A stretch of DNA of 64,000 bases. Origin: Betaproteobacteria bacterium. Its GTDB lineage: Bacteria > Pseudomonadota > Gammaproteobacteria > Burkholderiales > Burkholderiaceae_C. Position numbers and translations under genes: made by a program. Positions 3,392 through 42,639 of the stretch are shown piece after piece; position 1 is the first letter of the stretch, and each line of letters starts with the position of its first letter. The notes under the pieces are model-generated. The model ran no database searches and was not told the origin of the DNA. It was given only the letters and a program-made list of their open reading frames with translations. The stretch covers positions 197 through 64,196 of the forward strand of contig JANLPN010000392.1 of assembly GCA_031367285.1 (NCBI GenBank), given 5' to 3'.

Positions 3392-3407
3392 TATACTGTA
3401 TAGTATA
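3392..3407. promoter_or_regulatory. Perfect TATACT-N4-AGTATA operator upstream of Bug gene
   Basis: TATACTGTATAGTATA, flanked by a wider GACGAAA...TTTCGTC inverted repeat, about 50 bp before ATG 3457. Confidence 0.7.
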
Positions 3408-3456
3408 TTTTTCGTCGATCCATCCGGGATACCCCGGGGACACTGAAAGCCTTGCC

Positions 3457-4431
3457 ATGCTGATTCGAAGCCTTTTATCGCTTGCTTTCCTGTTGACTGC
3501 CTGCGGCTTGTCCGGCGCACAGGAATTTCCCGGCAAGCCGATACACATCGTTATTCCCTACGCACCGGGAGGCGGCAGCGACATACTTGCGCGCCCGCTT
3601 GCACCGGATATGGCGGAGCGGCTCAAGCAATCGGTGGTGATCGACAACAAGGGGGGTGCCGCAGGCAATATAGGCACCCAGATGGTTGCGCACGCGGAGC
3701 CGGATGGATACACGCTGCTGATGGCCAACAACTCCCAGGCCATCAATCCGTTCATCTACAAAAACCCGGGCTATGACCTGGCAGCGGACTTCGTGCCTAT
3801 CTCGCTGGTGGGTACTTCGCCAGCCATCGTAGTGGTGCACAGGTCATTGCCGGTGACCAGTCTCAAGGAGTTCGTGGCGCTGGCCCAGAAGAGCCCCGGC
3901 AAACTCAACTTCGGCAGTCCCGGAGCCGGCACCCCGGGCCATCTGGCGTCCCTGTTGTTCAACAAACTGGCCGGCATCAATCTGGTCCATATCGCCTACA
4001 AGGGCTCGGGACCTACCACCATGGCATTGCTTCAAAAGGAAGTAGACGTGTTTTTTGGTACCCCCGCCGCCGTGGAGCCCTACATCAAATCAGGCGATTT
4101 CCGTGCGCTTGCTGTCACTTCCAGGGAACGGTTCGCCGCCTTTCCAACCGTGCCGACCGTGGCTGAGTCCGCCATTGCCGGTGTTCCCGCCGATTTCAAT
4201 ATCCAGATCTGGTGGGGCCTGCTTGCGCCGGCCCGAACCGATCCGCGCGTGCTGGACAAATTGCAGGCGGCAGTGGCGGCCGCGGTGCGGGACCCCAAGA
4301 TCAGCGAGCGTTGGCTGGCGCAAGGCATGGTGCCTACGAGCACTTCACGCGCGGAGTTCCAGGCGCTGATCAAGAGCGAGTTGCAGAAGTGGGAAAAAGT
4401 CGTGCGCGAAAACAACATCACGGCGGAGTAA
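3457..4431 (+). CDS. Bug/TctC-family tripartite tricarboxylate transporter substrate-binding protein
   Basis: Signal peptide; PYAPGGGSDILAR, IDNKGGAAGNIG, YKGSGP, W-x-GLLAPA motifs. Confidence 0.93.
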   Translation: MLIRSLLSLAFLLTACGLSGAQEFPGKPIHIVIPYAPGGGSDILARPLAPDMAERLKQSVVIDNKGGAAGNIGTQMVAHAEPDGYTLLMANNSQAINPFIYKNPGYDLAADFVPISLVGTSPAIVVVHRSLPVTSLKEFVALAQKSPGKLNFGSPGAGTPGHLASLLFNKLAGINLVHIAYKGSGPTTMALLQKEVDVFFGTPAAVEPYIKSGDFRALAVTSRERFAAFPTVPTVAESAIAGVPADFNIQIWWGLLAPARTDPRVLDKLQAAVAAAVRDPKISERWLAQGMVPTSTSRAEFQALIKSELQKWEKVVRENNITAE

Positions 4432-4453
4432 GTCACCCGCCTGGGCGCGCAAT

Positions 4454-5392
4454 ATGCCACTCGCTCCGGAGATCAGCAGCCTGCTGGTGGCGGTCAATGC
4501 CCAGCCGCCCATGCACCAGGTGCCCATCGCGCAATTGCGCAGGACGCGCGAGCGTATTGGAGCCACGGACTTCCAGCCGGTAGGCAAAGTCGTCGATCAG
4601 ACGATTGCGGGTCCTGCAGGGTCGATTCCGCTGCGCCTCTACGCGCCCGAGGGCGATTTGAGGGAACTTCCGCTCGTCATTTTTTTCCATGGCGGTGGCT
4701 TTGTTTTTGGCAGCGTGGACGGTTATTACGACCACGTCTGCCGGGTCTTCTGCGCGCAGGTGCGATGCCGCGTCATCTCGGTTGCCTACCGGCTCGCTCC
4801 GGACGACAAGTTTCCAGCCGCAACCGACGATTGTTATGCCGCGCTGCAATGGGCGGTTGCGCACGGGAATGACCTCGGCATTGACACGGGGAAGGTGTTC
4901 CTGGCCGGGGGCAGCGCCGGCGCCAATCTGGCGGCGGTGACCGCGCTGCGCGCACGCGACGCAGGCGGACCGGTTTTGCGTGGGCAGGTTCTGTTCTATC
5001 CGGTCGCCGATTACCATACGCCGCCAACCGCATCGTCGCTGGATTTCTCCGAGGGCTATTACCTGACGCGTGCCGACGTTGTATGGTTCTGGGAGCAGTA
5101 CTTGCGCGACGCGGCCGATGCGGACAACTCCTACGCCGTGCCCATGCGCGCTACAACGCTGGCCAAATTGCCACCCGCGCTGGTCATCACCGCTGAATAC
5201 GACCCATTGCGGGATGAGGGCGAACACTACGCCCGGCGTCTGGTCGAACACGGCGTCCAGGTAACGCTCACCCGCTACCCCGGCATGGTGCACGGCTTCC
5301 TGGCTTTTCCGACCGACCAGGCGTCCGCGGCCTTGCAGGAAGCCGTGGTGTGGATCAAGTCTTTGGCGGGAGCAGCGACTGCATCGAGCTAG
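4454..5392 (+). CDS. Alpha/beta hydrolase, HSL-family esterase
   Basis: HGGGF oxyanion motif, YRLAP, GGSAG nucleophile elbow, EYDPLRDEG, HGF. Confidence 0.92.
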   Translation: MPLAPEISSLLVAVNAQPPMHQVPIAQLRRTRERIGATDFQPVGKVVDQTIAGPAGSIPLRLYAPEGDLRELPLVIFFHGGGFVFGSVDGYYDHVCRVFCAQVRCRVISVAYRLAPDDKFPAATDDCYAALQWAVAHGNDLGIDTGKVFLAGGSAGANLAAVTALRARDAGGPVLRGQVLFYPVADYHTPPTASSLDFSEGYYLTRADVVWFWEQYLRDAADADNSYAVPMRATTLAKLPPALVITAEYDPLRDEGEHYARRLVEHGVQVTLTRYPGMVHGFLAFPTDQASAALQEAVVWIKSLAGAATASS

Positions 5393-5486
5393 GTTTCGGG
5401 CGCATCCCGTTGGTGCGGCGCCATTGCGTCCAGGCTGGCACAAACGCGCAGGTACTTGATGCCGGTGATAGTAGGCATGGAGTGTG

Positions 5487-5514
5487 AGGGTTAACCCTTA
5501 TTTACTGACCAGTA
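5487..5514. promoter_or_regulatory. AGGGTTAACCCT palindrome plus TACT-N4-AGTA operator core
   Basis: AGGGTTAACCCT 5487-5498 and TACTGACCAGTA 5503-5514 in an AT-rich intergenic region upstream of the 5.6-15.1 kb operon. Confidence 0.55.
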
Positions 5515-5604
5515 GTTAATAAATACCATACGGCATATCTGCAATCTTGTTAGTAAATTGTGGCATGTGCAAGCCGGAGTCTTCCCGGCCCCGGCCCCTG
5601 GCGA

Positions 5605-6085
5605 ATCGTCAACGAAGGGAAAACTTCCGTGGTCACCATTCCCAAATCTCCCTACACCCAACCCGAGATGTTCCAGGCGGACGTGATGGAGCTGGACAAC
5701 AAGTGGTACTCGCTTGGCAAGATGGGCATGGTGCGCCCGCTGACGTGGAACAGCGCCGTCATCTTGCCGGCGGCCGCGTGGGCTGGAACATCGTCTCTGG
5801 CTTCAGCCAGGCCGAGCAACTGGCCAGCGGCCTGGGCACCCAGACGCCCCATGAAGAGCGTTACGACCAGGCCGAGCGTCGCGGGCATGAAGAAAAGCAT
5901 GGACCAACTGCGCACCGCGGCCGACCTGCATGGCCACAAGGAAGAGCTCAAGGTGCTGTTGGGCCTGCAACCCATCATCCGTAGTACCGAGGCTGAGGCA
6001 CGCCAGCGCGCCGAAGAACTGGCGGAGCGGATTCCGTACCGCCTACGAAGGCGAGAGTTTCCGCGCCAACCTGATGGCCGGCTGA
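5605..6085 (+). pseudogene. Collapsed remnant of an NtaA/SnaA/DmoA-type LLM monooxygenase, preceded by an unidentified coding fragment
   Basis: Family fragments occur in three reading frames: HLAGGRVGWNIVSG...HEERYDQAE; KEELKVLLGLQPIIRSTEAEARQRAEEL; FRTAYEGESFRANLMAG* (TGA 6083-6085). About 330 bp remain of a gene normally about 1.3 kb. Confidence 0.75.
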
Positions 6086-6098
6086 AGGTCACGCCACC

Positions 6099-7190
6099 AT
6101 GAATACCGCTTTGGCCGAACCGGAACCAACCACCATCGACCCGATGGAGCTGCGCCGCTGCCTGGGCTCCTTCGTCACCGGCGTCACCGTCATCACCGCG
6201 CTGTCCGAGGACGGTACGCCGATAGGCATGACGGCCAACTCGTTCAACTCGGTGTCGCTCGACCCGCCGCTGATCGTCTGGAGCCTGCGCATGAATGCGC
6301 GCGCCTTTGCGGTCTACAGCCAGGCCAAGCGGTTTGTCGTCAACATCCTGTCCGAGGAGCAGGTCGATGTCTCGAACCGTTTCGCCAAGTCGGGGCCAAA
6401 CCGTTTCGATGGTGTTGCCGTCACGGCCGGTATCGAAGGCGTGCCGCTGATCGACGGATGTTCGGCGCACCTGGAGTGCCGCACCGAGACGGTCTATCCG
6501 GGTGGCGACCACCTGCTGTTCCTGGGCCGCGTCGAGCGCATCGTGGGCAGCGCGCGCAAGCCATTGGCCTTTGGCGCCGGCAAGTACATGGTGGTGCACC
6601 CTTACGACAATTCGGCCAACGCGGATTTCGGCTCGGGCAATGTGGCAAGCCTGAACGCGGTACACCTGGCCCGTCCGGTGCTGGAAGAGCTGAACCGCGA
6701 GACCGACAAGACGGTTGGACTGGGCGTCTGGGGCAACCTCGGGCCTACGCTGATCTGGTGGATAGAGGCGCGCAAACCGCTTGAAAACCGCCTGCGTTGC
6801 GGCATGGTCATCCCGCTGCTGGGTTCCTCCACTGGCAAGGTGTTCGCCGCCTTTTCATCGCCCCAGTTGACCGAGCGTTACTTGCAGGCCGAAATCGCCG
6901 CCATGCGGCACCTCAAGGACGCGCCGTTCACCACCCGTGAAGCGGTGGAAGAACATCTGGTGCAGGTACGCGAAGAGCGCCTGGCGTCGATCCACAACGC
7001 CATCTTGGCCGACGTCAATGAACGCGGTGTGAGCGCCGTCAGCGCGCCGGTGTTTGACGCGGGCGGCGCCATCGTGCTGGCGCTCACCATGATGGGCAAC
7101 GCCGACGAGTTCGACGAACACAACCCGGCCGTCGAGCACCTGCGTGAAGCCGCGAGAAAGTTGTCCGCGCGCCTGGGGTACAAGTCATGA
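6099..7190 (+). CDS. Flavin reductase domain fused to an IclR-type effector-binding domain (no HTH)
   Basis: N-half LRRCLGSFVTGVTVIT, TANSFNSVSLDPPL, GGDHLLFLGRV. C-half ETDKTVGLGVW, PLLGSSTGKVFAAF, VSAVSAPVFDAGG. Confidence 0.85.
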   Translation: MNTALAEPEPTTIDPMELRRCLGSFVTGVTVITALSEDGTPIGMTANSFNSVSLDPPLIVWSLRMNARAFAVYSQAKRFVVNILSEEQVDVSNRFAKSGPNRFDGVAVTAGIEGVPLIDGCSAHLECRTETVYPGGDHLLFLGRVERIVGSARKPLAFGAGKYMVVHPYDNSANADFGSGNVASLNAVHLARPVLEELNRETDKTVGLGVWGNLGPTLIWWIEARKPLENRLRCGMVIPLLGSSTGKVFAAFSSPQLTERYLQAEIAAMRHLKDAPFTTREAVEEHLVQVREERLASIHNAILADVNERGVSAVSAPVFDAGGAIVLALTMMGNADEFDEHNPAVEHLREAARKLSARLGYKS

Positions 7191-8077
7191 GCGGGATGGC
7201 CACCCACAACGCTTGGGGCCGCTGGGGCGCCGAGGACGAGCGCGGCGCGGTCAACACCATCGGCCCCGACCAGGTGCGCCGGGCCACGGCCCTGGTACGC
7301 ACCGGCGAGGTGCTGCGGCTGGCGCAACTGTTGTCCGACAAGACGCCGGTGCCGGCGCACCGTTGCGGTCTGCAACATTTCATGGGCCGGGACGGCGGCG
7401 ACTACGCCATCGCCGGCAGCAAACGCCCAGGTGGTTTCCAGTTTGCCGAAGACTCGGTGGTGATGCCGCTGCACATTGGCACCCATGTGGACGCCTTGTG
7501 CCACGCCTGGTACGACGACAAACTCTACAACGGCTACCTGGGCGACACGATACGCAGCACTACCGGCGCGGGGCGGCTCGGGGTCGAGAAAATGCCGCCG
7601 GTCGTGACGCGCGGCGTCTTGCTGGATTTTGTGCGGCTCAAGGGGCGTGTGCTGGCCGACGGTGAATCCATTGGTGTGGCCGACCTGGAAGCCGCGGCGG
7701 CGGCGGCCGGTGTACAGATTGAGAAGGGCGACGCGGTGTTGCTGCGTACCGGCTGGCTGGAAGCGCAAAAGGGTGTGAAACACCCGTCCTTCAACGAGGA
7801 ACCCGGCATCGACGTGGACGCGGCCCTGTGGCTGGCCGAGCGCTCGGTAGCCATGGTGGGCGCCGACAACTTTGCCATCGAGGTCCTGCCGTTTGCCCCG
7901 GGCAAGGTGTTTCCGGTGCACCAGTTGCTGATCCGCGACTACGGTGTGCCGCTGCTCGAAGGGCTGATGCTCGACCCCCTGGTGGCCAGCGGCCGCCATG
8001 AGTTCCTGTTTGTGGCCAGCCCCTTGCCCATTGTCGGCGCCACCGGCAGCCCGCTGGCGCCGGTAGCCGTACTTTGA
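7187..8077 (+). CDS. Cyclase-family (KynB/isatin hydrolase-like) metal-dependent amidohydrolase
   Basis: HxGTHxD metal motif (HIGTHVD), GDAVLLRTGW, GADN, LLEGL. ATGA-coupled to the upstream gene. Confidence 0.88.
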   Translation: MSGMATHNAWGRWGAEDERGAVNTIGPDQVRRATALVRTGEVLRLAQLLSDKTPVPAHRCGLQHFMGRDGGDYAIAGSKRPGGFQFAEDSVVMPLHIGTHVDALCHAWYDDKLYNGYLGDTIRSTTGAGRLGVEKMPPVVTRGVLLDFVRLKGRVLADGESIGVADLEAAAAAAGVQIEKGDAVLLRTGWLEAQKGVKHPSFNEEPGIDVDAALWLAERSVAMVGADNFAIEVLPFAPGKVFPVHQLLIRDYGVPLLEGLMLDPLVASGRHEFLFVASPLPIVGATGSPLAPVAVL

Positions 8078-8082
8078 AAACC

Positions 8083-9288
8083 ATGAAAAAACAAAGGCCG
8101 CTTGAGGGCATTCGTATCCTGGAGATCGCCTCGATGATTTTCGGCCCGGTGGCTGGGCAGTACCTGGGCGACATGGGCGCCGACGTGATCAAGCTTGAGC
8201 CGCCCGAAGGCGATTTGACGCGTTCGATAGGCCCGCGCCGGTCGCCGCGCATGGGCGCGTTTTTCCTGACCAGCAACCGCAGCAAACGCAGCATCGTGGT
8301 GGACCTGAAACGCCCCGAGGGTCGCGAAATACTGCAGCGCCTGGTCGCCAGGACCGACGTATTGCTGCATTCCATGCGCACGCCCGCCGCCAACCGGCTC
8401 GGGCTGGGGTATGAAACGCTGGTCAAGAGCAATCCGGCCCTGGTCTACTGCCATGTGACCGGTTATGGCGACGAGGGTCCCTACGGCGGCCGGCCCGCCT
8501 ACGACGACATCATCCAGGCCGCTTCGGGCCTGGCCATGATGCAGAAGGTGGTGGGCGGCGAGCCGCGTTTCGTGCCTACCATCATCGCCGACAAGATCAG
8601 CGGTGTACACGCGGCCTACGCCATCGTGCTGGCATTGATGCACCGCATGCGTACCGGAGAGGGGCAGCAGGTCGATGTGGCCATGTTCGAAACCATGGCG
8701 GCGTTCAATATGATGGAACACCAGTGGGGCCACGCTTTTGAGCCGCCGCTGGGCCCCATGGGTTATGCGCCGGTGATCTCGGCGGCCCGGCGACCCTACC
8801 GTACACAAGACGGGTACCTGGCGCTGCTGCCGTATTCGGATACGCACTGGCGGCGCTTTTTCGAGCTGGCCGGTGAGCCGCAAATCATGCAGGACGAGCG
8901 CTTCGCGACCTTTGCCGCGCGCCAGAAACATTTTCGCGCGGTGTGGGACGAGATCGAGCGCCAGGTCGCGCGCAAGACCAATGCCGAATGGTTGCGCCTG
9001 CTGACACCCGAGGACATTCCGTTCTCCCCGGTCAACGACATGCAAGACCTGCCCAACGACCCGCACCTCAAGGCGGTGAACTTCTGGAGTGTTGCCGAAC
9101 ACCCCACCGAAGGCAAGCTGCTGATCCCGGCCAACCCGCTGCGCATGAGCGCGTCGCCGCCCGAGGTAACCCGCTTGCCGCCCACACTGGGCCAGCACAG
9201 CGCCGAGATTCTGCGCGAATACGACTATGACGAGACCGACGTGGCACGGATGACCGCTGCGGGCGGAACCTGCGCTGCCGACATTTGA
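8083..9288 (+). CDS. Class III CoA-transferase (CaiB/BaiF family)
   Basis: PLEGIRILE, LGDMGADVIKLEPPEGD, NRSKRS, IADKISG (catalytic Asp), PPTLGQHS. Alternative TTG start 8074. Confidence 0.93.
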   Translation: MKKQRPLEGIRILEIASMIFGPVAGQYLGDMGADVIKLEPPEGDLTRSIGPRRSPRMGAFFLTSNRSKRSIVVDLKRPEGREILQRLVARTDVLLHSMRTPAANRLGLGYETLVKSNPALVYCHVTGYGDEGPYGGRPAYDDIIQAASGLAMMQKVVGGEPRFVPTIIADKISGVHAAYAIVLALMHRMRTGEGQQVDVAMFETMAAFNMMEHQWGHAFEPPLGPMGYAPVISAARRPYRTQDGYLALLPYSDTHWRRFFELAGEPQIMQDERFATFAARQKHFRAVWDEIERQVARKTNAEWLRLLTPEDIPFSPVNDMQDLPNDPHLKAVNFWSVAEHPTEGKLLIPANPLRMSASPPEVTRLPPTLGQHSAEILREYDYDETDVARMTAAGGTCAADI

Positions 9289-9301
9289 CCTGGCCCGTAC
9301 C

Positions 9302-10462
9302 ATGATTCCACGCACTATCTTCAGCTCTGACCACGATGCGTTTCGCGACAGCGTACGCCGCTTCATCACCGAGCATGTGACGCCCCACCACGCCGACTGG
9401 GAGAAGGCCGGCCAGGTGCCGCGCGAGCTCTGGACCAAGGCCGGTGAACTGGGCCTGCTGTGCTGCAACGTGCCCGAGCAATACGGCGGCATGGGCGGCG
9501 ACTTCCTGTACAGCACCCTGCTGATCGAGGAGATGGCGCGTGCGGGGGCCACCGGGCCGACCTTCTACCTGCATTCGGACATCTGCGCGCCCTACCTGGT
9601 GGACTTTGGCACCGAGGAGCAAAAACAGAAGTGGCTGCCCAAAATGGCCACCGGCGAAGTGGTGGCGGCGCTTGGCATGAGCGAGCCGTCGGGTGGCAGC
9701 GACGTGCAGGCCATGCGCACGCAGGCCATCCGCGACGGCGACGAATACGTCATTGACGGCCAGAAAGTGTTCATCACCAATGGCCACAGCGCCGACCTGC
9801 TCATACTGGCCTGCAAGACCGACCCCAAGGCGCGCGGCAAGGGCGTGAGCCTGATCCTGGTCGAGACCAACCGGCCCGGCTTCACACGTGGCCGCAAGCT
9901 GGAGAAGCTGGGTTGCAAGGCGCAGGACACGTCCGAGCTTTTCTTTGCCGACCTGCGGGTTCCGGTGGGCAACCTGCTAGGCCATGAAGGCGGCGGCTTC
10001 GCCATGCTGATGACGCAGCTGTCGCAGGAACGCCTGGTGCAGGCGATTCGTGGGGTGGCCAGCTCCGAAGCGGCGCTGCAGTGGACGATTGCCTATGTGA
10101 GCGAACGCAAGATGTTCGGCCAGACACTGGGCGACTTCCAGAACACGCGCTTCAAGCTGGCCGAGCTGCACGCCGAAGTGCTGGCCCAACGCGTGTTCGT
10201 GGACCGCTGCATCGAGCTGCACCTGGCGGGCAAGTTCGATGCCACCGACGCCGCAGCGGCCAAACTTGTCACCACCGAGCTGCAGGGCCGCGTGATGGAC
10301 CAGTGCCTGCAGTTCTTCGGCGGCTGGGGTTATATGTGGGAATACCCGATTGCCCGCGCCTTTGCCGATGCGCGCATGTGCCGCCTGGGCGGCGGCACGG
10401 CCGAGGTGATGCGGCAAATCATCGGCAACTCGTTATTGCCCAAGGTGCGCAAGGCGGCATGA
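9302..10462 (+). CDS. Acyl-CoA dehydrogenase (LCAD/IVD-type catalytic Glu position)
   Basis: MSEPSGGSD, GQKVFITNG, KLGCKAQDT, SQERL, FGGWGYMWEYPIAR, GGGTAEVM. Confidence 0.95.
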   Translation: MIPRTIFSSDHDAFRDSVRRFITEHVTPHHADWEKAGQVPRELWTKAGELGLLCCNVPEQYGGMGGDFLYSTLLIEEMARAGATGPTFYLHSDICAPYLVDFGTEEQKQKWLPKMATGEVVAALGMSEPSGGSDVQAMRTQAIRDGDEYVIDGQKVFITNGHSADLLILACKTDPKARGKGVSLILVETNRPGFTRGRKLEKLGCKAQDTSELFFADLRVPVGNLLGHEGGGFAMLMTQLSQERLVQAIRGVASSEAALQWTIAYVSERKMFGQTLGDFQNTRFKLAELHAEVLAQRVFVDRCIELHLAGKFDATDAAAAKLVTTELQGRVMDQCLQFFGGWGYMWEYPIARAFADARMCRLGGGTAEVMRQIIGNSLLPKVRKAA

Positions 10463-10474
10463 ACATGTCCGCCA

Positions 10475-11161
10475 TTGGCCACGGGATTCAAGGGAACAAG
10501 CGCCGTGCATGACGATATGCGCCTGGCAGTGCAAAGCTTGAAGCGCGAGCGTATCGTGGCGGTGGCGGTGGACCTGTTTTACCTGCAGGGTTTTGGCCAG
10601 ACCACTCTGGACCAGGTGGCCGAGCAGATGGGCATGACCAAGCCCTTTATCTACGTTCATTTCCACTCCAAGGGCGAGTTGCTGGCAGCCATCTGCGCCC
10701 AGGGCATCCGGGTCTCGCTGGGTGCGATCGACCGTGCGTTGGCATCGGGCGGATCGGCGCGCCAGCGGCTCACCGCATTTGCGCACGGCTTCACGCTGGC
10801 GGTGCTGGAGAGCCAGAAACATGTGGCGATCTATACCCGCGAAGAAAAAAACCTGGCGCCGGCCGACTGCGATGCGATCCAGCGCATGCGGCGTGAATTC
10901 GACCGCAAGCTGACCGGCCTGCTGGACCAGGGCGTTGCCAGCGGGGAGTTCCAGATCAGCGAGCCGCCGCTGGCGGCGCTGGCCATCGGTGGTATCGCGA
11001 GCTGGGCCTGCGTCTGGTTCAGACCCGGCGGTCGCCTGGCCGCCAGCGAAATTGCACAACACATGGCGGCCTTGATGCTGGCCATGGTCAAGGCCGACAG
11101 AAGCGGCCAACCGGCCGGCATGGCCGATCAAGTTTTACGACCCGAGGAGACAACTTCATGA
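10475..11161 (+). CDS. TetR-family regulator with KstR2/PaaR-like C-terminal domain; start uncertain
   Basis: HTH GFGQTTLDQVAEQMGMTKPFIYVHFHSK; C-term GVASGEF...AIGGIASW..VWFRPGGRL. Alternative start ATG 10517. Confidence 0.88.
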   Translation: MATGFKGTSAVHDDMRLAVQSLKRERIVAVAVDLFYLQGFGQTTLDQVAEQMGMTKPFIYVHFHSKGELLAAICAQGIRVSLGAIDRALASGGSARQRLTAFAHGFTLAVLESQKHVAIYTREEKNLAPADCDAIQRMRREFDRKLTGLLDQGVASGEFQISEPPLAALAIGGIASWACVWFRPGGRLAASEIAQHMAALMLAMVKADRSGQPAGMADQVLRPEETTS

Positions 11162-12141
11162 TTACCCGCCGCAAAATAGTTCAGGCCGCAGTGGCAACCA
11201 GCGTCGCGCATTGGCTGACGCCGACACACGCACAGACCACCAATTGGCCCGAACAAGCGGTCAAGATAGTGGTGCCGTTCACGGCCGGGGGCGCCTCCGA
11301 CGTGTTGACGCGTATGCTGGCCGAAAAGCTGCAGGGCCGGCTGGGCCAGAACTTCGTGGTGGACAACCGCACCGGTGCGGGCGGCAATATCGGCATGGAG
11401 GCGGTCAAGAACGCACCGGCCGACGGCTACACGATTTCCTCCTCGACCATCGGCACCTTGTCGATCAACCAGTTCCTGTTCGCCAAGCTCGGCTACGACC
11501 CGGTGGCCGACTTCGCCTACGTGTCGATGATCTGGGAAAACTGCAATGTGTTCGTGGTTGCGTCCCAGCATCCCGCCAAGACGGTGCAGGAGTTCCTGGT
11601 CTGGGCGCGCAAGCAGCCCAAGGGCGTGACCTTCGGTTCCGCCGGCGTGGGAACCACGCCGCACCTGGCGGGCGAGCTGTTTCGTGCCCGCACCGGCATC
11701 ACGGCACTGCACATACCGTACCGCGGTGCCGCGCAGTCGATGCCTGCCCTGATGGCCGGCGACACCGATTTCGCGATTGATAACATCGCAAGCTACCTGC
11801 CCCTGATCAAGAGCGGCAAGGTGCGTGCGCTGGCGGTTACGGCGGGGGCACGCTGGCCCACGCTGATGGAGGTGCCAACCATGGCGGAGGCGGGCGTGCG
11901 CGACTTCATCATCACGTCCTGGGGCGCTTTTGTGGTACCCAAGGGCACCCCGGTCGCGATCATCAACAAATTGTCGGGCGCGGTGCAGGCCATTGCCGCC
12001 GAACCGGCCATGCAGCAGCGTTTTCTGGAGAGCGGCGCACGGGCGGTCGCGTCCACGCCGGCCGAGACGGCGGCGTTTGCCGAACGCGAACGGGTGAAGT
12101 GGAAAGAAGTGGTGCAGATCTCCGGCGCCAAGATGGACTAA
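11158..12141 (+). CDS. Bug/TctC-family substrate-binding protein, Tat-like signal
   Basis: TRRKIV twin-Arg; PFTAGGASD, DNRTGAGGNIG, PYRG motifs. Confidence 0.93.
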   Translation: MITRRKIVQAAVATSVAHWLTPTHAQTTNWPEQAVKIVVPFTAGGASDVLTRMLAEKLQGRLGQNFVVDNRTGAGGNIGMEAVKNAPADGYTISSSTIGTLSINQFLFAKLGYDPVADFAYVSMIWENCNVFVVASQHPAKTVQEFLVWARKQPKGVTFGSAGVGTTPHLAGELFRARTGITALHIPYRGAAQSMPALMAGDTDFAIDNIASYLPLIKSGKVRALAVTAGARWPTLMEVPTMAEAGVRDFIITSWGAFVVPKGTPVAIINKLSGAVQAIAAEPAMQQRFLESGARAVASTPAETAAFAERERVKWKEVVQISGAKMD

Positions 12142-13451: not shown

Positions 13452-13526
13452 AACAGGCGTAACCCGAGGAGACAACATGGACATCGAGCCCCTTACCCAA
13501 GTTATCCAGGTCACCCAGGAGGCCCC

Positions 13527-14681: not shown

Positions 14682-14686
14682 CAGCC

Positions 14687-15290: not shown

Positions 15291-15306
15291 TATACTGGCA
15301 AGTATG
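15291..15306. promoter_or_regulatory. TATACT-N4-AGTAT(G) operator overlapping a probable -10 box and the TetR start codon
   Basis: TATACTGGCAAGTATG. The ATG at 15304 lies in the right half-site, 7 nt after TATACT. Confidence 0.7.
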
Positions 15307-25245: not shown

Positions 25246-25268
25246 GAGCGCAGCTTCAAGGAAAAATC

Positions 25269-26399: not shown

Positions 26400-26470
26400 G
26401 CGTGAGAGGCAATCCAATGCATCCGCGCCGGATAGCCGCACAATAGAAACCCTGTCGAAAAGAGTCGTCC

Positions 26471-28434: not shown

Positions 28435-28454
28435 CGGGCCAACAAGGAGACTGC

Positions 28455-29916: not shown

Positions 29917-29927
29917 GGAGCACGAAC

Positions 29928-32051: not shown

Positions 32052-32174
32052 ATCAGGGCCGCGCCCCTCAAGGTTCTGCCGTCAGAGATCGCCTGACGTG
32101 TCGACAACTCAGGGATGAAGCATGGGCACGCTTTGCCGACTCCGCTGCCGTTTAGGCAACAAGCCCTTCGCTCT

Positions 32175-32277
32175 GGCTGTACCAGCGGGGCCTGATCCAT
32201 ACCCTGGTGGAGCCGGGGCAGGCGCTCGAAGAAGCCAACAAGCTGGCCCGGCGCATCTAGGCAACGCCCCGCTGGCG
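32175..32277 (+). pseudogene. About 100-bp degenerate copy of an internal enoyl-CoA hydratase segment
   Basis: Closely matches 28951-29054. Reads LYQRGLIHTLVEPGQALEEANKLARRI* versus LYQYGLINALVEPGQALEEAKKLARRIL. Confidence 0.82.
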
Positions 32278-32309
32278 CAAAGCGCGAACCAACACGAACG
32301 AGGCACGAC

Positions 32310-34040
32310 ATGAAACGACTTCTTCCAATTGCAAGCGCGGTTGCCGCCGGTCTGCTGGTGGCCTGTGCAAACCCTGACCCACCACGTCTGATGGCAGAAG
32401 CAAAGAGCTGCGCGGCGGCCGCGGCCGCGGTTGCAGCCGACAACCCGGTGCGCGGTACGACCTTGCGTATCACCAAGTCGGAAGAACAGGCCGCGACGTC
32501 CGAGGTCAAGGCGCACTGCCTGGTCGAAGGCGCCATGAACGAACGCATCAGCGCGGTCGATGGGCGGCCCTACGCGATGAAGTTCCGCATGCGCATGCCG
32601 CAACCGCAGGACTGGAACGGCAAGTACTTCATGCAAAGTGTTGGTGGTTTCGTGGGCATCGTCGACACCGGGTTTGGCTGGTACTACGGAATGATCGACA
32701 ACGCGTTCTCGCGTGGCTACGCCGTGATCGTTCAGGACGCCGGGCACGACAACGCAGTCAACTCCGATCCCAACGCCGGCGGCCCGTCGGCCTTTGCGCG
32801 CGACCCGCAGGCGCGCATCGACTTCGGGCACAACTCGTACGACGTGGTTGCGCGCGCCGGCAAGGCGATCGTGAGCACGTATTACGCGAAAGCGCCGGCG
32901 CATTCCTATTTCCTGTCTTGCTCCGACGGCGGCCGCCAGGCGGTGGGCATAGCGCAGCGGTATCCCACGGTCTTCGATGGAATCGTTGCGGGGGCTCCAG
33001 CCATGAGCATCCCGTACATGAGCGCCTACGTGCCGCTTATCGTACAGACGCTTGCGCCTCTGGCGGAACGCGCCGGACACAGGGATGCCAACGGCAGGCC
33101 GTTATTCAACCGGATCTACACCGACGCCGATTTCCAGCTGGTGTCGAATGCCGTGCTCGAGGCTTGCGACGGCCTGGACGGCCTGAAAGACGGCATCGCC
33201 AACAATATCGCCGCCTGCACGGATGCCGTGGTGGTGCCCAAGCTCACCGCGTTGACTTGCCAGGGCGCCAAAACTTCAAGCTGCCTGGCGGCTGATCAGA
33301 TCAGCGCCTTGCGTACCCTGATGGCTGGTCCCAAGACGTCTACCGGCGCGCAGCTTTATCCGGGCCAGGCCTGGGACCCGGGAATTGGCGGGATGAACGC
33401 CGGTGCGTTCAACCAGGAGTTCCGCAGGCAATGGTTTGGTACCTATGACTCACCGACCAACAACTCGACCAAGATGACGATCAGCGCGCCTCAGGCCATG
33501 ATGGTCTGGAAGACGCCGCCGACCCCGATGACGATTCCGCAGGCGATCGACTTCTTCATGAAGTACAACCTCGACGACACCGAAGCCAGCATCACGCGCA
33601 CCAACGACGTCTACAAGCAGTCGGTGGTCGAATGGGGCCTCATGAACTCGCCCGATCTGTCCGGCTTCAAACGACGCGGGGGAAAGATGATTGCCTGGAT
33701 CGGCAACGCCGACGCCGCGGTCAGCGCCAAGGAAACCATCGGCTGGTACAACCAGGTCAATGATCGCGAAGGCGGCAAGGCGTCCGACTTTCTAAAACTC
33801 TTCGTGGTTCCCGGAATGGCCCACTGCACGGGGGGCATGGCAACCGACCGTTTCGACATGCTCACCGCGCTGGAGGCCTGGGTCGAACGTGGCAACCTGG
33901 ACAGCGTTCCGGCAGAGGCCTCCAAGCCCGGGTTTTTCGGGGTAGCAAGCCGCACCCGCCCGTTGTGCCCTTACCCCAAGTACGCGCACTACAACGGCTC
34001 GGGCGACATCAATGTGGCGGCCAGCTTTACATGCAAGTAG
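32310..34040 (+). CDS. Tannase/feruloyl esterase-family lipoprotein, MHETase-like
   Basis: Lipobox LVAC (Cys19); CS-D-HC catalytic set Cys204-Ser205, Asp468, His505-Cys506; GHDNAVN, DPQAR, DGIVAGAP, TDRFDMLT, RTRPLCPYP. Confidence 0.92.
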   Translation: MKRLLPIASAVAAGLLVACANPDPPRLMAEAKSCAAAAAAVAADNPVRGTTLRITKSEEQAATSEVKAHCLVEGAMNERISAVDGRPYAMKFRMRMPQPQDWNGKYFMQSVGGFVGIVDTGFGWYYGMIDNAFSRGYAVIVQDAGHDNAVNSDPNAGGPSAFARDPQARIDFGHNSYDVVARAGKAIVSTYYAKAPAHSYFLSCSDGGRQAVGIAQRYPTVFDGIVAGAPAMSIPYMSAYVPLIVQTLAPLAERAGHRDANGRPLFNRIYTDADFQLVSNAVLEACDGLDGLKDGIANNIAACTDAVVVPKLTALTCQGAKTSSCLAADQISALRTLMAGPKTSTGAQLYPGQAWDPGIGGMNAGAFNQEFRRQWFGTYDSPTNNSTKMTISAPQAMMVWKTPPTPMTIPQAIDFFMKYNLDDTEASITRTNDVYKQSVVEWGLMNSPDLSGFKRRGGKMIAWIGNADAAVSAKETIGWYNQVNDREGGKASDFLKLFVVPGMAHCTGGMATDRFDMLTALEAWVERGNLDSVPAEASKPGFFGVASRTRPLCPYPKYAHYNGSGDINVAASFTCK

Positions 34041-34063
34041 CGGCTTGCCGGGTTTCGCAATGG

Positions 34064-36148
34064 ATGGCGGCGCAGCTGCCAACCGCGGTGGCGCTGGCCA
34101 TTGGTTCACTCTGCGCCAGCTGCGTGAACGCCCAGGCGCTGGAGCCCGTAGTGGTGTCCGCCTCTCGCGCGCAGCAGCGCAGCTTCGATGCGCCGGCCGC
34201 CATTCAATTGGTTGATCGCGCAGCGATAGAGAACGCCGGGCCACAGGTCAACCTGTCGGAGTCGCTGAATCGGGTGCCCGGCCTGACGATACTCAACCGG
34301 CAAAACTACGCGCAGGATCTGCAGGTTTCCATCCGTGGTTTTGGCGCCCGGTCAGCGTTTGGCATCCGGGGCATCCGCATACTGGTGGATGGCATTCCCG
34401 CCACAACACCGGACGGCCAGGGGCAGGGTTCGTCGATCAGTTTGACGTCAACGGATCGCATCGAAGTCTTGCGGGGTCCGCTGGCGCAGTTGTATGGCAA
34501 TTCGGCCGGTGGCGTGATCCAGGCATTTACCCGCAGCGCCCCTGAACAGCCGGAATTCGGCGCGCAGGCTTACGTTGGCTCCTACGGCATGCGCCGCGGC
34601 GACTTGCAGTATGCCGGACGTATCGGTGCCTATGGCGTGGTGGCCGACTACAGCACGTTTGACACCAACGGGTACCGGGACAACAGCAACACCGAGCGCC
34701 GACAGTTCAACGGCAAGCTGAACTTCAATGCAGGCGAAAGCACCAGCGTCAACCTGGTCTACAACCGCTTCGACATGCCAATGGCACAGGATCCGCTTGG
34801 GCTCACTGCCGCCCAGATGGCCGCCAATCCGTCGCAGGCAGGCAACAATGCCACCAGTCGAAGGACGCGCAAAGCGGTACTACAGGATCAGCTTGGCGGC
34901 TCGCTGGTCCACACCATCGATGCGGAGCGCTCGCTCACCGCCCGCCTTTATTACGGAACCCGCGATAACCTGCAATACCAGACCGGCCTCGCGGCATCCA
35001 CCGGGGCATGGGTCGGGCTGGATCGAAGCTATTACGGTACCGGCCTCCAATACAACCAGCAAGGGCAAATTGGCGGTCGGCGCGTGACTTGGGCGGCAGG
35101 TTACGAGTTTGACCGATCCCGGGAAACGCGCCAGGGCGGCGTTGCGGCATTGGGCGAGAAAAAGTCCACCACCCGCAACGAAGATAACCAGGCCGAAAAC
35201 AGCGATCTTTTTATCCAGGCAACGGCCCTGGTATCGGACCAGCTGTCGATGGTGGCCGGCCTGCGCTACAGCACGGTCCGCTTCGCCAGCCATGACCACT
35301 ACCTGAGCGATGGAGACGGCTCGGGTTCGACCAGCTTCCGGGCCACCAGTCCGGTGCTGGGGCTGACCTACCATGCCAGCGACGATCTCAATCTGTATGC
35401 CAATTACGGCAAGGGGTTCGAGAGCCCCACGCTGGCCGAGGTGGCCTACCGTGGCGCGGGCACACCGGCATTCAACACCACCCTGAATGCGTCCAGCAGC
35501 CAGCACTATGAATTGGGTGCGAAGTGGCTGCCCGATCCGCAATCCCGGCTGGACTTCACCTTGTTCCGGATCGCGTCACGCGATGAACTGGTGGTGGCCA
35601 GCAGCAGCGGCGGGAATTCCACCTTCAAAAACGCGCCGGGGACAACAAGAACCGGATCGGAGCTTTCCGGCAATACCTTGTTGACGCCGCACTTGCGTGC
35701 CACGGTGGCAGCGTCCCGGATCAGCGCGACGTTCTCGCGTGCTTTCACCAGTGGCGCGAACAGCGTAGCGTCAGGCAACAAAATCCCGGGCATTCCGCAA
35801 AGCTTTGTGTTTGCGGAGGTCCTGTGGAGCGGACCGAAGATGGACGGCGGCGGCATAAAAGATGCCGGCCTTGGGAGCCAGGCCGGCATCGAATTCACCC
35901 GCGCCGGAAGACTGTATGCCAACGACACCAATACGGCCTCTGCCGATGGCTACAGCAGCGTGAATGCCAAACTCAGCCATGGCTGGAAGCTGGGCTCCGG
36001 CAGTCTGACGGCCTATACGCGCGTCGACAACCTGGCCAACAAACGTTACGCGGGCTCGGTGATTGTCAACCAGGCGGCGGCGCAGTACTACGAGCCGGCG
36101 TCCGGAAGAAACTGGACGCTTGGGCTTCGAATGGTGTTGCCACTGTGA
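34064..36148 (+). CDS. yncD: TonB-dependent receptor, YncD/PqqU family (candidate PQQ importer)
   Basis: Plug NLSESL..VPGL...NRQNYAQDLQVSIRGFG.RS.FGIRGIR..VDGIPAT.PDGQGQ matches the recalled YncD/PqqU sequence. Start approximate. Confidence 0.8.
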   Translation: MAAQLPTAVALAIGSLCASCVNAQALEPVVVSASRAQQRSFDAPAAIQLVDRAAIENAGPQVNLSESLNRVPGLTILNRQNYAQDLQVSIRGFGARSAFGIRGIRILVDGIPATTPDGQGQGSSISLTSTDRIEVLRGPLAQLYGNSAGGVIQAFTRSAPEQPEFGAQAYVGSYGMRRGDLQYAGRIGAYGVVADYSTFDTNGYRDNSNTERRQFNGKLNFNAGESTSVNLVYNRFDMPMAQDPLGLTAAQMAANPSQAGNNATSRRTRKAVLQDQLGGSLVHTIDAERSLTARLYYGTRDNLQYQTGLAASTGAWVGLDRSYYGTGLQYNQQGQIGGRRVTWAAGYEFDRSRETRQGGVAALGEKKSTTRNEDNQAENSDLFIQATALVSDQLSMVAGLRYSTVRFASHDHYLSDGDGSGSTSFRATSPVLGLTYHASDDLNLYANYGKGFESPTLAEVAYRGAGTPAFNTTLNASSSQHYELGAKWLPDPQSRLDFTLFRIASRDELVVASSSGGNSTFKNAPGTTRTGSELSGNTLLTPHLRATVAASRISATFSRAFTSGANSVASGNKIPGIPQSFVFAEVLWSGPKMDGGGIKDAGLGSQAGIEFTRAGRLYANDTNTASADGYSSVNAKLSHGWKLGSGSLTAYTRVDNLANKRYAGSVIVNQAAAQYYEPASGRNWTLGLRMVLPL

Positions 36149-36269
36149 CGTCGTGTCCAGCATCCAATGGCCGGAAAGCTGGGAGATGCCAAGGGTTTAC
36201 CCTAGTAGATTATTCTTGGACGCATGATGCAATACTCACGCGTAAGTTTTTAACCCGAAAGGAAGACAA

Positions 36270-41021: not shown

Positions 41022-41031
41022 GGAAATTTTC

Positions 41032-41763
41032 ATGACCCGATTTATCGACCGGGTGTTCCTGATTTCAGGCGGCGCGCGTGGCCTTGGGGAAGCGCAGGCG
41101 CGTGGCCTGGTGGCCGAAGGCGCCAAAGTGGTTATTGCGGATGTGCTGGTGGAGCAGGGCCGGCAATTGGCGGCCGATCTGGGTGGCGCCTGCACCTTCC
41201 AGGAACTGGACGTGACCAGTGAGGCGCAGTGGCGCGAGGCCGTGGCGCTGGCGCGGCGCATCGGCAAGCTGCATGGCCTGGTCAACAACGCCGGCATCTT
41301 CCATCCGGCCTCGATTGCCGATACCAGCACGGAATCATTCGAGCGCCATATGCGCGTCAACCAGCTCGGCACCTTCCTGGGCATGCAGGCGGTGGTCCCG
41401 GCCTTCGAGGACACCGGCAACGGAGCCATCGTCAATATCTCTTCCGCGGCGGGCCTGCGCGGTGCGCCCAACACAATTGCCTACACGGCGACCAAGTGGG
41501 CCGTGCGCGGCATGACCAAGGCCGCGGCTCTGGAGCTTGCGGGCAGGAACATCCGCGTGAACTCGGTCCATCCCGGGCCGATAGACACGGACATGTTGAG
41601 GGTTCGCGGTGCGCAGGAAAACAAGCTGCGCGCCGAACGCGTCCCGATGAAGCGTTATGGAACCAGGGAGGAGATCGCGGGCCTGGTGCTGTTTCTGCTG
41701 TCCGATGCAAGCCGCTACATGACCGGGGCCGAGGTCGCGATGGACGGCGGAATAACGCTGTAG
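41032..41763 (+). CDS. SDR-family alcohol dehydrogenase (3-alpha,20-beta-HSD/CpnA-like), copy 1
   Basis: SGGARGLG, NNAG, YTATK, NSVHPG, DGG. Confidence 0.93.
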   Translation: MTRFIDRVFLISGGARGLGEAQARGLVAEGAKVVIADVLVEQGRQLAADLGGACTFQELDVTSEAQWREAVALARRIGKLHGLVNNAGIFHPASIADTSTESFERHMRVNQLGTFLGMQAVVPAFEDTGNGAIVNISSAAGLRGAPNTIAYTATKWAVRGMTKAAALELAGRNIRVNSVHPGPIDTDMLRVRGAQENKLRAERVPMKRYGTREEIAGLVLFLLSDASRYMTGAEVAMDGGITL

Positions 41764-41824
41764 CAAGAAACGGGCGCGCACGGCGCGCGACGCTACCGGC
41801 CCAACTTTTCTGGAGACAAAACAC

Positions 41825-42556
41825 ATGGCACGATTCACTGACCGGGTTTTCCTGATTTCCGGCGGGGCACGGGGACTCGGTGAAGCACAGGCGCGCTCCC
41901 TGGTCGCCGAGGGCGCGAAGGTCGTCATTGGCGACGTGCTGGCCGACGACGGCCAACGGCTCGCGGCTGCGCTCGGGCCGGCGTGCAGGTTCGAGCGGCT
42001 GGACGTCACCAGCGAAGTGTCCTGGCGCAACGCGGTTGCAGTGGCCGAGTCCCTGGGCCGGCTGCACGGCCTGGTCAACAACGCAGGCGTCTACAAACCC
42101 GTGCCTTTGCTGGAAACCGACACGGCCGAGTTCGAGCGCCACACACGGGTCAACCAGCTGGGCACTTTTCTGGGCATGCAGGCGGCGGTTCCGGCGCTCG
42201 AGCGCACCGGCGGCGGCGCCATCGTGAACATGTCGTCCACCGTGGCGCTGCGCAGCGCACCCAACTCCATCGCCTACACCGCCACCAAGTGGGCCGTTCG
42301 TGGCATGACCAAGGCCGCCGCGCTGGAACTGGTGGATAAAAACATCCGAGTCAACTCGGTGCACCCGGGGCCGATAGACACCGACATGCTGAACGTGCGC
42401 ACACGCGAAGAGAACCTGCGCCGGGCGCAGCAGGTGCCGATGAAACGCCTCGGTACCAAAGAGGAGATCGCGGGTCTGGTGTTGTTCCTGCTGTCGGACG
42501 AAAGCCGCTTCATGACCGGCTCGGAGGTGGCGATGGACGGCGGCGCGGCACTTTGA
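41825..42556 (+). CDS. SDR-family alcohol dehydrogenase, tandem paralog copy 2
   Basis: Same 243-aa length and motifs, with long identical blocks shared with copy 1. Confidence 0.93.
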   Translation: MARFTDRVFLISGGARGLGEAQARSLVAEGAKVVIGDVLADDGQRLAAALGPACRFERLDVTSEVSWRNAVAVAESLGRLHGLVNNAGVYKPVPLLETDTAEFERHTRVNQLGTFLGMQAAVPALERTGGGAIVNMSSTVALRSAPNSIAYTATKWAVRGMTKAAALELVDKNIRVNSVHPGPIDTDMLNVRTREENLRRAQQVPMKRLGTKEEIAGLVLFLLSDESRFMTGSEVAMDGGAAL

Positions 42557-42623
42557 ACGGCTTCCGATAGTCGCGACTCAGGGAAAACCCCTAGGCGGAA
42601 AATCTACTCACGCATGCAGAAAA

Positions 42624-42639
42624 GCTACTGAGTGGTATA
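42624..42639. promoter_or_regulatory. Near-consensus TACT-N4-(G)GTATA operator upstream of ABC binding protein
   Basis: GCTACTGAGTGGTATA inside an AAAAG...CTTTT inverted frame. AGGGAAAACCCC lies at 42580-42591. Confidence 0.5.

Follow-up and report, generated by a model that had tools for sequence, protein, structure and literature searches.

DarR (Ms5346) of Mycolicibacterium smegmatis, which has orthologues in Rhodococcus and M. baixiangningiae, is a TetR repressor that binds ATACT-N4-AGTAT in vitro; each subunit reads TxC, with Lys44 directed to the G opposite C and Gly45 to the T, and two dimers occupy one 20-bp site (PMC10636190). KstR2 (Rv3557c) represses steroid ring C/D catabolism in Actinobacteria, where it controls about 15 genes including its own, and the effector inducing this regulon is methylhexahydroindanedione propionate (HIP)-CoA (PMC6593523). 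In Burkholderiales, including Comamonadaceae, fatty acid degradation has been predicted to be controlled by FadP, a TetR regulator (Kazakov et al. 2009; PMC5343134; bioRxiv 10.1101/2025.02.21.639450). The TetR protein Rv3167c of M. tuberculosis directly represses the adjacent Rv3168-Rv3169 via an intergenic palindrome (PMC5340868). Here we analyze a stretch of 64,000 nucleotides from a Betaproteobacteria bacterium (GenBank assembly GCA_031367285.1, contig JANLPN010000392.1, positions 197 to 64,196; hereafter the window), which carries a catabolic gene cluster, two TetR genes (tetR1 and tetR2) and a recurrent palindrome, wTATAC(T/C)-N4-(A/G)GTATAw. Judged from the sequence, this palindrome is very likely to be the operator of the paralogous repressors TetR1 and TetR2, which would share one regulon, TetR2 being the conserved regulator and TetR1 a lineage-specific paralogue with the same helix. 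The literature yielded no earlier account of the regulator or its motif for Proteobacteria, and the motif of FadP was not retrievable.

The palindrome and the two TetR proteins

The motif statistics given here cover this 64-kb window and a set of related loci. Exact TACT-N4-AGTA cores occur five times in the window (3394, 5503, 15293, 17196 and 21757), and perfect TATACT-N4-AGTATA 16-mers are present at 3392 and 17194, all of them where an earlier note on this DNA had placed them. Dinucleotide shuffles gave an expectation of 0.02 exact cores, with at least five cores in 0 of 100 shuffles, and the 0.2 cores per 64 kb estimated in that note were too generous to chance. The four near-matches that it listed, each carrying one core mismatch, were also recovered (21736, TACGCATTAGTA; 29347, TACTCGCAAGAA; 36233, TACTCACGCGTA; 42626, TACTGAGTGGTA), with coordinates right to within one base (29346 had been given for 29347). 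Two more one-mismatch cores were found, one at 17217, which is a real tandem partner, and one at 34028, which lies in coding DNA with poor flanks and is probably a chance match.

A first weight matrix was trained only on sites of other genomes and was then iteratively refined. When the 64 kb were scanned with the other-genome matrix, the matches scoring at least 8 were exactly the ten positions named above other than 34028, while the refined matrix added two and gave twelve sites scoring at least 10, all of them intergenic (Table 1). Seven of the twelve score at least 15 (S4a, S6, S1, S2a, S3, S5b and S5a) and the other five 10.6-12.8 (S2b, S8, S7, S2c and S4b), whereas window matches scoring below 9 with the same matrix are mostly coding and noise-like. 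The refined consensus is wTATAC(T/C)nnnn(A/G)GTATAw, in which TAC and GTA are essentially invariant. Intergenic DNA makes up 4.9 kb, or 7.6% of the window, and has a G+C content of 46-62% versus 64% overall; when its segments were shuffled singly and composition-matched, 0.5 sites were expected at a score of at least 10 and 0.05 at a score of at least 15. A rescan of ten other intergenic gaps of the window revealed no site even at a score of 2.

According to a gene map built from codon-position G+C and Pfam, each site precedes the leading gene of a run of genes on one strand, which upholds for all sites the earlier statement that they are intergenic and upstream of operon starts. Sites also recur in phase, and two or three operators per promoter are frequent: 54 of the 64 neighbouring sites found within 40 bp of strong sites stand at exactly 20 or 21 bp, which corresponds to two helical turns and suggests cooperative occupation of one DNA face by several dimers. 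The triple array at the head of the main operon, with spacings of 21 and 20 bp, is kept in orthologous promoters.

For comparison across genomes, 79 loci encoding TetR2 relatives were collected, one genome per species (1.08 Mb), mostly from Rhodoferax, Polaromonas and other Comamonadaceae (63-79% identity), with the rest from Acetobacteraceae, Rhodospirillales and Hyphomicrobiales (about 50-58% identity). Cultured carriers among them are Oxalobacteraceae IMCC9480 (L025), Alcaligenaceae CAII-56 (L049), Propylenella binzhouense L72 (L058), Falsiroseomonas sp. CW058 and HW251 (L055, L059) and Mesorhizobium sp. J18 (L079). The control set was drawn from metagenomes and comprised 80 loci that carry orthologues of an unrelated gene of the window, the 36270 dehydrogenase (441 kb, similar G+C). 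Around TetR2 orthologues, 50 exact and 124 relaxed cores were counted, versus 0 exact cores and 1 relaxed core in the control. A site scoring at least 15 is present in 64 of the 79 loci, and the conserved positions are the TetR2 start codon, the region before the family-III CoA-transferase gene and the head of the main operon, followed by the regions upstream of kinase, TctC, esterase (Est_b), Peripla_BP_6 (PBP6), acyl-CoA dehydrogenase (ACAD), FMO and AMP-ligase genes. The esterase, Baeyer-Villiger and short-chain dehydrogenase (SDR) genes downstream of 36233 in the window have no site of their own, and their orthologues in two related loci (L027 and L028) lie behind strong sites. These counts, together with 26 overlaps with the start codon described below, bear out the central proposal of the earlier note, namely that the palindrome is a cis-regulatory motif common to the promoters of the cluster and linked to the two TetRs.

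Both proteins carry the Pfam domains TetR_N (E 1e-13 to 1e-15) and TetR_C_24 (E 1e-28 to 1e-32). They are 55% identical, differ mostly in the C-terminal domain and have the same recognition helix, TKPFIY, as had been noticed earlier and as the alignment confirms; T71, K72, P73, F74, I75, Y76, S81 and K82 are invariant in an alignment of 28 homologues. The AlphaFold2 model of TetR2 has nine helices with a predicted local distance difference test score (pLDDT) of 85.5 and disordered residues 1-28, and its top 50 Foldseek matches are all TetR-family regulators. Since both proteins carry TetR_C_24 and the fold neighbours include PfmR, DarR, KstR2, AibR and FadR, the earlier description of their C-terminus as KstR2/PaaR-like is fair. 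Domains and predicted fold place the proteins in the TetR family, with which the palindromic candidate operators at the TetR2 gene and its convergent neighbour and the putative autoregulation also agree. TetR2 is encoded in all related loci, always convergent with the CoA-transferase gene, whereas TetR1 occurs in about ten loci only. A database search with TetR2 gave 981 matches at E ≤1e-20, the best with 84% identity, which range over freshwater Comamonadaceae, Acetobacteraceae and Hyphomicrobiales, and some of these homologues bear the JGI label "cholesterol catabolism regulator", which is an automatic name and not evidence. A search of a plasmid database returned four distant matches only (34-50% identity) and no annotated model cluster.

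The alignment of 28 members places the start of TetR2 at ATG 15304 (MKK...). An internal start just before EDIRD was considered and rejected, because P and G occur at that position besides M, I, V and L, and because 26 loci keep the upstream ATGAAAAA, in frame. The ATG of TetR2 is contained in the sequence TATACTnnnnRGTATGAAA both here and in 26 orthologues, and its A is the eighth base after TATACT, an ordinary distance from a -10 hexamer to a start. There is no Shine-Dalgarno sequence at tetR2 because the operator fills that space. On this arrangement, TetR2 is very probably autoregulated. Moreover, because the ATG lies in the operator, 8 nt after TATACT and without a ribosome-binding site, the tetR2 mRNA is probably leaderless and would start at or next to the AUG, with the left operator half as its -10 and no clear -35. 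Leaderless mRNAs have precedents in tetR of Tn1721 and in lambda cI. The N-terminal tail of TetR2 (15304-15390) is disordered, rich in Lys, Arg, Ala and Pro and about 15-70 residues long across orthologues, and TetR1 has no long basic tail. By analogy with the N-terminal arms of other TetR proteins, such as SimR, in which the arm contacts DNA, this tail may contact the AT-rich flanks of the operator.

Mechanism, effector and competing explanations

In seven to eight promoters, the predicted operators overlap or adjoin the -10/start region. In the mechanism that we propose, a TetR dimer would read the TAC/GTA triplets via helix alpha-3 (T-K-P-F-I-Y), comparable to the Thr-Lys-Gly of DarR reading TxC, and TetR2 would cover its own promoter together with the start site of its leaderless mRNA. 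Binding of a pathway intermediate to the C-terminal TetR_C_24 domain would relieve repression, the likeliest ligand being an acyl-CoA thioester that CoA-transferases or ligases of the regulon produce. Since TetR1 is encoded in an induced operon, its level would increase upon induction, and it would then either restore repression or contribute a second ligand specificity. As a whole, the regulon would serve the catabolism of some ester, ketone or alicyclic carboxylate.

Several points weigh against one or another part of this proposal. The related loci were picked by the presence of the TetR gene, so co-occurrence cannot separate TetR2 from another factor that always travels with the cluster. 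The authors of the DarR study hold that any residue other than Gly at Gly45 would block DNA contact (PMC10636190); TetR2 has Pro73 at this place, so the thymine contact must be made differently and the DarR mechanism is not directly transferable. When a -35/-10 pair was searched for at every promoter, a convincing one was found at two only, and the sequence itself was found only in freshwater-sediment DNA metagenomes, no RNA run containing it. Upstream of the GSDH/dehydrogenase orthologues (67-78% identical), the motif of S7 is absent in 80 of 80 metagenome loci; S7 (36233), a weak site without comparative support, is doubtful, and the operon behind it (36-42.5 kb) is a tentative member of the regulon. 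TetR2 is only 23-33% identical to DarR, KstR2 and the other neighbours. As for the ligand, AibR binds its operator only with isovaleryl-CoA, which acts as a co-repressor, and the DNA binding of DarR, for which no classical inducer is known, improves 2.5- to 11-fold in the presence of c-di-AMP or cAMP (PMC10636190).

The fold neighbours of the TetR2 model are PfmR (E 1e-9, TM 0.87 on the target), 3dcf, 3him, DarR, KstR2, AibR with isovaleryl-CoA, FadR with stearoyl-CoA, and BkaR. Because of these neighbours and of a regulon full of CoA-thioester enzymes, an acyl-CoA is the best guess for the effector, and by this analogy we lean slightly towards it. The earlier note had assigned the two TetRs to a group derepressed by acyl-CoA thioesters, which fits KstR2 with its HIP-CoA but not AibR with its co-repressor or DarR with its cyclic nucleotides; the direction of the ligand effect does not follow from homology. 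Its further suggestion, that one CoA-ester inducer controls about 40 kb and ties the operons into one pathway, is over-simple, since besides its two paralogous repressors the cluster has other regulators (GntR and IclR) and two more promoter elements that are conserved. For the conserved core at 5.5-29 kb, a single pathway is a reasonable hypothesis.

It is conceivable, though we think it rather unlikely, that the sites are TetR operators which are not derepressed by one acyl-CoA, and that the ligand is instead a free acid, a ketone or a lactone, that an acyl-CoA acts as co-repressor, that a nucleotide strengthens binding, or that the paralogues sense different intermediates. The behavior of AibR and of DarR, the latter on the same operator, speaks for such an arrangement, as do the divergence of the paralogues mostly in the C-terminal domain and the other regulators and promoter elements around them. 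However, most of the characterized neighbours (KstR2, Bacillus FadR and PfmR) are released from DNA by acyl-CoAs, and many enzymes of the regulon produce or consume CoA thioesters. In addition, c-di-AMP synthesis is not known to be common in Betaproteobacteria.

The palindrome could also be bound by some other factor, with the TetRs reading something else; candidates are the GntR/FCD regulator (gene at about 2562-3254, plus strand, ending 138 bp before S1), the IclR regulator (51295-52068) or an unlinked protein. The operators of GntR-family proteins are also short AT-rich palindromes. However, homologues of the GntR gene occur in 0 of the 79 related loci and those of the IclR gene in 2 of 79 (it co-occurs in L056), and both were rejected as the palindrome-binding factor for this want of co-occurrence, while the flavin reductase-IclR_C fusion of the main operon has no helix-turn-helix. 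The motif over the TetR2 start codon in 26 genomes and the binding of the same palindrome by DarR, whose helix is closely related, also make this explanation improbable. The GntR protein may add control to the TctC/esterase operon.

Alternatively, TATACT might be a strong -10 hexamer of the lineage and the palindrome a by-product of AT-rich promoter DNA, without any repressor. TATACT is indeed one mismatch from TATAAT, and in a consensus scan an operator half coincides with the -10 hexamer of at least two promoters which also have a plausible -35, namely S1 (TATAGT at 3399-3404 inside the site; TCGAAA-17-TATAGT at 3376-3404) and S5b (the minus-strand TATACT; TTGCCA-18-TATACT at 21794-21765). 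Such doubling is normal for a repressor operator. In a count that does not depend on the matrix, RGTA follows at exactly +10 in 42 of 106 TATACY hexamers near TetR2 genes versus 0 of 70 in controls; because the partner half-site is tied to +10 near TetR2 genes only, the motif is not merely a -10 box. Moreover, the invariant bases TAC/GTA are not the key positions of a -10, and the 20-21 bp phasing and the ten rescanned gaps without the motif would be hard to reconcile with this explanation, which we regard as very improbable. The earlier note had allowed that the left half might be only a -10 box: it does serve as one in at least two promoters, but not only as that. Lastly, intergenic DNA is AT-rich enough for an AT-rich word to recur in it by chance, and about 0.5-1 weak matches (score 8-11) per window are expected on this basis. 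Chance may account for 36233 but is a negligible explanation for the rest, in view of seven sites scoring at least 15 against 0.05 expected and of the conservation across genomes.

Putative target operons and further promoter elements

Table 1. Predicted operator sites, TetR genes and putative target operons of the window. Scores are those of the refined matrix; operons are proposed from strand and spacing, and enzyme names are at family level (Pfam, NCBIfam).
Feature	Coordinates	Strand	Score	Description
S1	3392..3407		20.7	Perfect palindrome TATACTGTATAGTATA, 64 bp before the ATG (3471) of a TctC-type binding-protein gene
S2a	5501-5516		20.2	Triple tandem with S2b and S2c, main operon
S2b	5522-5537		12.8	Triple tandem
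S2c	5542-5557		10.9	Triple tandem
S3	15291..15306		19.9	TATACTGGCAAGTATG; last three bases are the ATG of TetR2
S4a	17194-17209		26.9	Perfect palindrome, best score in the window
S4b	17215-17230			Weak, 21 bp from S4a
S5a	21734-21749		15.2	Tandem with S5b, 21 bp apart
S5b	21755-21770		16.0	Tandem with S5a
S6	29345..29360		20.9	TATACTCGCAAGAATT, upstream of 2Fe-2S/molybdopterin oxidoreductase genes
S7	36231..36246		11.1	ATACTCACGCGTAAGT, 24 bp upstream of the pyrroloquinoline quinone (PQQ)-type dehydrogenase gene (ATG 36270); doubtful
S8	42624..42639		12.4	GCTACTGAGTGGTATA, TACT-N4-GGTA variant common in the family
TetR1	10475..11161	+		TetR_N and TetR_C_24, inside the main operon
TetR2	15304..16023	+		TetR_N and TetR_C_24
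TctC/esterase operon	3471..5392	+		TctC-type binding protein, Abhydrolase_3 esterase
Main operon	5560..15124	+		Cupin/luciferase-like remnant, flavin reductase-IclR_C, cyclase-family hydrolase, CoA-transferase III; then acyl-CoA dehydrogenase, TetR1, TctC, FMO-like monooxygenase, thiolase-like protein, DUF35
CoA-transferase III	17163-16054	-		Own operators
Kinase operon	21483 down to 17446	-		APH-like kinase, Rv3169-family protein, acetyl-CoA hydrolase/transferase-family protein
TctC/acyl-CoA synthetase operon	22016..29219	+		TctC, ADP-forming acyl-CoA synthetase, NMO-family oxidoreductase, TctC, SMP-30-type lactonase, enoyl-CoA hydratase
Operon behind S6	29383..36148	+		2Fe-2S and molybdopterin subunits, tannase/feruloyl esterase, TonB-dependent receptor
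Operon behind S8	42752..51240	+		Peripla_BP_6, ABC-ATPase fragment, thiamine pyrophosphate (TPP) enzyme, Baeyer-Villiger monooxygenase; then SDR, luciferase-like monooxygenase, AMP-ligase

The synteny of the main operon is kept in about 35 loci. Among the remaining sites, S4a and S4b lie upstream of the minus-strand family-III CoA-transferase gene, and S5a and S5b occupy the divergent gap between the kinase operon and the TctC/acyl-CoA synthetase operon. For S6, the related loci offered no orthologous promoter for comparison. S8 stands about 110 bp upstream of the Peripla_BP_6 gene (ATG 42752), with a TACT half-site 21 bp upstream at 42605; it is accepted as an operator because the whole promoter is conserved in L027 and L028, in position and sequence alike. 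In addition, orthologues of several genes of the operon behind S8 are found beside TetR2 homologues in L027, L028 and L056.

In total, the proposed regulon encodes four orphan TctC proteins, one Peripla_BP_6 protein and, for hydrolysis, two Abhydrolase_3 esterases, a tannase and an SMP-30 lactonase. Its oxygenases are one FMO-like, two Baeyer-Villiger and one luciferase-like monooxygenase, besides the flavin reductase-IclR_C fusion, and its CoA enzymes comprise two family-III CoA-transferases, a butyryl-CoA:acetate-type transferase and ADP- and AMP-forming ligases. An acyl-CoA dehydrogenase, an enoyl-CoA hydratase, an NMO-family reductase, the thiolase-like/DUF35 pair, the APH-like kinase/Rv3169 pair and a 2Fe-2S/molybdopterin oxidoreductase complete the set. 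This content suggests oxidation of ketones to esters or lactones, hydrolysis, CoA activation and beta-oxidation-like shortening. The substrate cannot be named, however, because all NCBIfam matches are far below the equivalog cut-off except Rv3169_fam (258 bits). A broader view, which we put forward tentatively, is that the locus represents a widespread, undescribed proteobacterial TetR subfamily with a two-repressor circuit (a leaderless, self-occluded TetR2 and a TetR1 in an induced operon) that uses the operator code of DarR for an uncharacterized ester, ketone or alicyclic-acid pathway, combining Baeyer-Villiger and luciferase-like monooxygenases, a lactonase, an APH-like kinase/Rv3169-family protein and CoA-transferases. 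If this subfamily exists as described, an acyl-CoA ligand would name the substrate and would hint that the ancestral inducer of DarR was an acyl-CoA.

Several genes of the cluster are remnants or fusions. The open reading frame (ORF) at 5560-6102 is a mosaic remnant of four collinear fragments, with internal deletions of about 790, 270 and 350 bp, and at this place related loci carry a 162-aa cupin-like gene and an approximately 440-aa luciferase-like (DszA/NtaA-type) flavin monooxygenase. Promoter and operators are intact, while the flavin reductase encoded next to the remnant has thus lost its oxygenase partner here. The gene at 6099-7190 encodes a flavin reductase fused to IclR_C, whose best NCBIfam match is the reductase component of p-hydroxyphenylacetate 3-hydroxylase, and the fusion suggests substrate-gated flavin reduction rather than DNA binding. 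The 93-aa ORF at 44021-44302, directly after the binding-protein gene, retains only the C-terminal motif of LivG-type branched-chain ABC ATPases and looks like a remnant of a lost ABC transporter. The segment 52000-64000, which encodes a hybrid histidine kinase, a response regulator-adenylate/guanylate cyclase, a GH31 glycosidase and a sugar ABC transporter, has no site, so the regulon ends by about 52 kb. Neither an integrase nor a transposase was seen in the window, and the "island" of the earlier note is to be taken as a gene cluster only.

Besides the operators, the promoters contain other conserved elements. An Rfam scan of the whole window found no family, so the conserved leaders are not known riboswitches. 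A second palindrome, AAGGGTT(A/T)AACCCTT / AGGGAAAACCCCT, is present at 1457-1469, 5487-5499, 36191-36203 and 42580-42592; it has 5 matches (both strands counted) versus 0.49 expected, all of them intergenic. It stands directly upstream of the first operator in the main-operon and PBP6 promoters and is conserved in related loci (L027:8106, L030:910, L033:784 and L036:964), and a similar TAGGGAwTnnnCTAGG is found upstream of 36270-dehydrogenase orthologues in unrelated metagenome contigs. This palindrome may be the site of another regulator or a promoter element. The Peripla_BP_6 leader (42641-42678) holds two self-complementary TTTTCGAAAA copies 28 bp apart, conserved in L027, L028 and L056, the last of which keeps the pair but has no TetR operator there; the pair is probably the site of a further regulator. 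A conserved GGATTATTTT element (gene strand AAAATAATCC) at 17164-17193 abuts the CoA-transferase operator, as it also does in L002, L015, L016, L043, L048 and L049, and probably holds the transcript start of that promoter together with its -10 (nAAAAT). Finally, CAAGTACTTG, a perfect 10-bp palindrome, lies at 29363-29372, 3 bp downstream of S6, with its TACT 21 bp after that of S6, and its core also resembles that of the KstR2 operator, CAAGnnCTTG.

Significance and comparison with known systems

Our analysis turns separate operons into one testable regulon, with confidence at 3.4-36 kb and with comparative support at 42.6-51 kb. It also provides an operator model and names the repressor. Beta- and Alphaproteobacteria of fresh water and soil commonly carry this cluster, and its substrate could be read from the ligand of that repressor. 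Current understanding is not overturned, since local TetR regulons with palindromic operators are commonplace. However, the locus offers a natural comparison for DarR (the same operator, Pro for Gly in the helix and probably a different class of ligand) and a conserved proteobacterial case of a repressor start codon inside its own operator. As a compact operator/repressor pair that may respond to acyl-CoA, it could also be of use as a biosensor.

Among known systems, FadP resembles the regulator described here in being a TetR repressor of the same order with many CoA-catabolism operons. Reports confine FadP to Betaproteobacteria, however, and give etfAB and general beta-oxidation genes as its core regulon, whereas the TetR2 family reaches Alphaproteobacteria and belongs to a specialized cluster. 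TetR2 is set apart from FadP by this described range and regulon, not by motif or sequence, so the two could conceivably be the same. A different kind of likeness is seen with the Rv3167c system, since the APH-like kinase gene followed by the Rv3169-family gene (21483-18703, minus strand) lies directly behind a candidate TetR operator in the window as well. The regulon of Rv3167c differs in extending to phthiocerol dimycocerosate (PDIM) genes (PMC5340868). A TetR-controlled kinase/Rv3169 module thus appears to recur across phyla.

AibR (Myxococcus xanthus), PfmR, FadR (Thermus) and FadR/YsiA (Bacillus) have the closest folds; they are self-regulated, use palindromic operators and bind acyl-CoA in the C-terminal domain. 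Their operator sequences are different, though, their regulons concern fatty acid, phenylacetate or isovaleryl-CoA metabolism, and the polarity of AibR, which needs acyl-CoA for DNA binding, is opposite to that assumed here. KstR2 shares the TetR_C_24-type fold and the role of a local repressor of a multi-operon, CoA-dependent catabolic regulon, and its targets likewise include an AMP-ligase, acyl-CoA dehydrogenases, an NMO-family reductase, an enoyl-CoA hydratase and a thiolase. However, identity to KstR2 is 23%, and the operator here is based on TAC-N6-GTA, while that of KstR2 is reportedly AnCAAGnnCTTGnT. The HIP regulon of KstR2 includes ipdAB, fadD3 and echA20, but neither an IpdAB-type (class-I) CoA-transferase nor other HIP hallmark genes are present in the window, the CoA-transferases being of family III and of the acetyl-CoA hydrolase type.

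At the level of DNA recognition, DarR is among the best PDB matches to TetR2 (sequence E about 2e-15; Foldseek rank 7; helix-turn-helix ATKGLIYYHFRSK versus VTKPFIYSHFSSK). Its operator core ATACT-N4-AGTAT is contained in TATACT-N4-AGTATA, the invariant TAC/GTA fits TxC reading, the fold is the same, and five of the seven DNA-contacting residues are kept (T71, K72, Y76, S81 and K82); both proteins would also share autoregulation and the binding of more than one dimer per promoter, for which tandem sites speak here. In DarR the seven residues are Lys44 and Gly45, which contact bases, and Thr43, Tyr48, Tyr49, Ser53 and Lys54, which contact phosphates. On the other hand, Gly45 and Tyr49 of DarR are replaced by Pro73 and Ser77, and with 23-26% identity and a gene context other than the MFS transporter and acyl-CoA ligase found beside DarR the two are not orthologous. 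Two DarR dimers bind one 20-bp site, whereas here separate 16-bp sites stand 20-21 bp apart; the known ligands of DarR, c-di-AMP and cAMP, strengthen its DNA binding; it controls an MFS transporter, fatty acid genes and cspA rather than a large catabolic cluster; and it is actinobacterial, while the TetR2 family is proteobacterial. The likeness to DarR thus lends support by homology, not proof, to the binding of such a palindrome by TetR1 and TetR2. Taken together, TetR2 is probably a local TetR repressor that is DarR-like at the level of DNA and KstR2/FadR-like at the level of the ligand, and an orthologue of neither.

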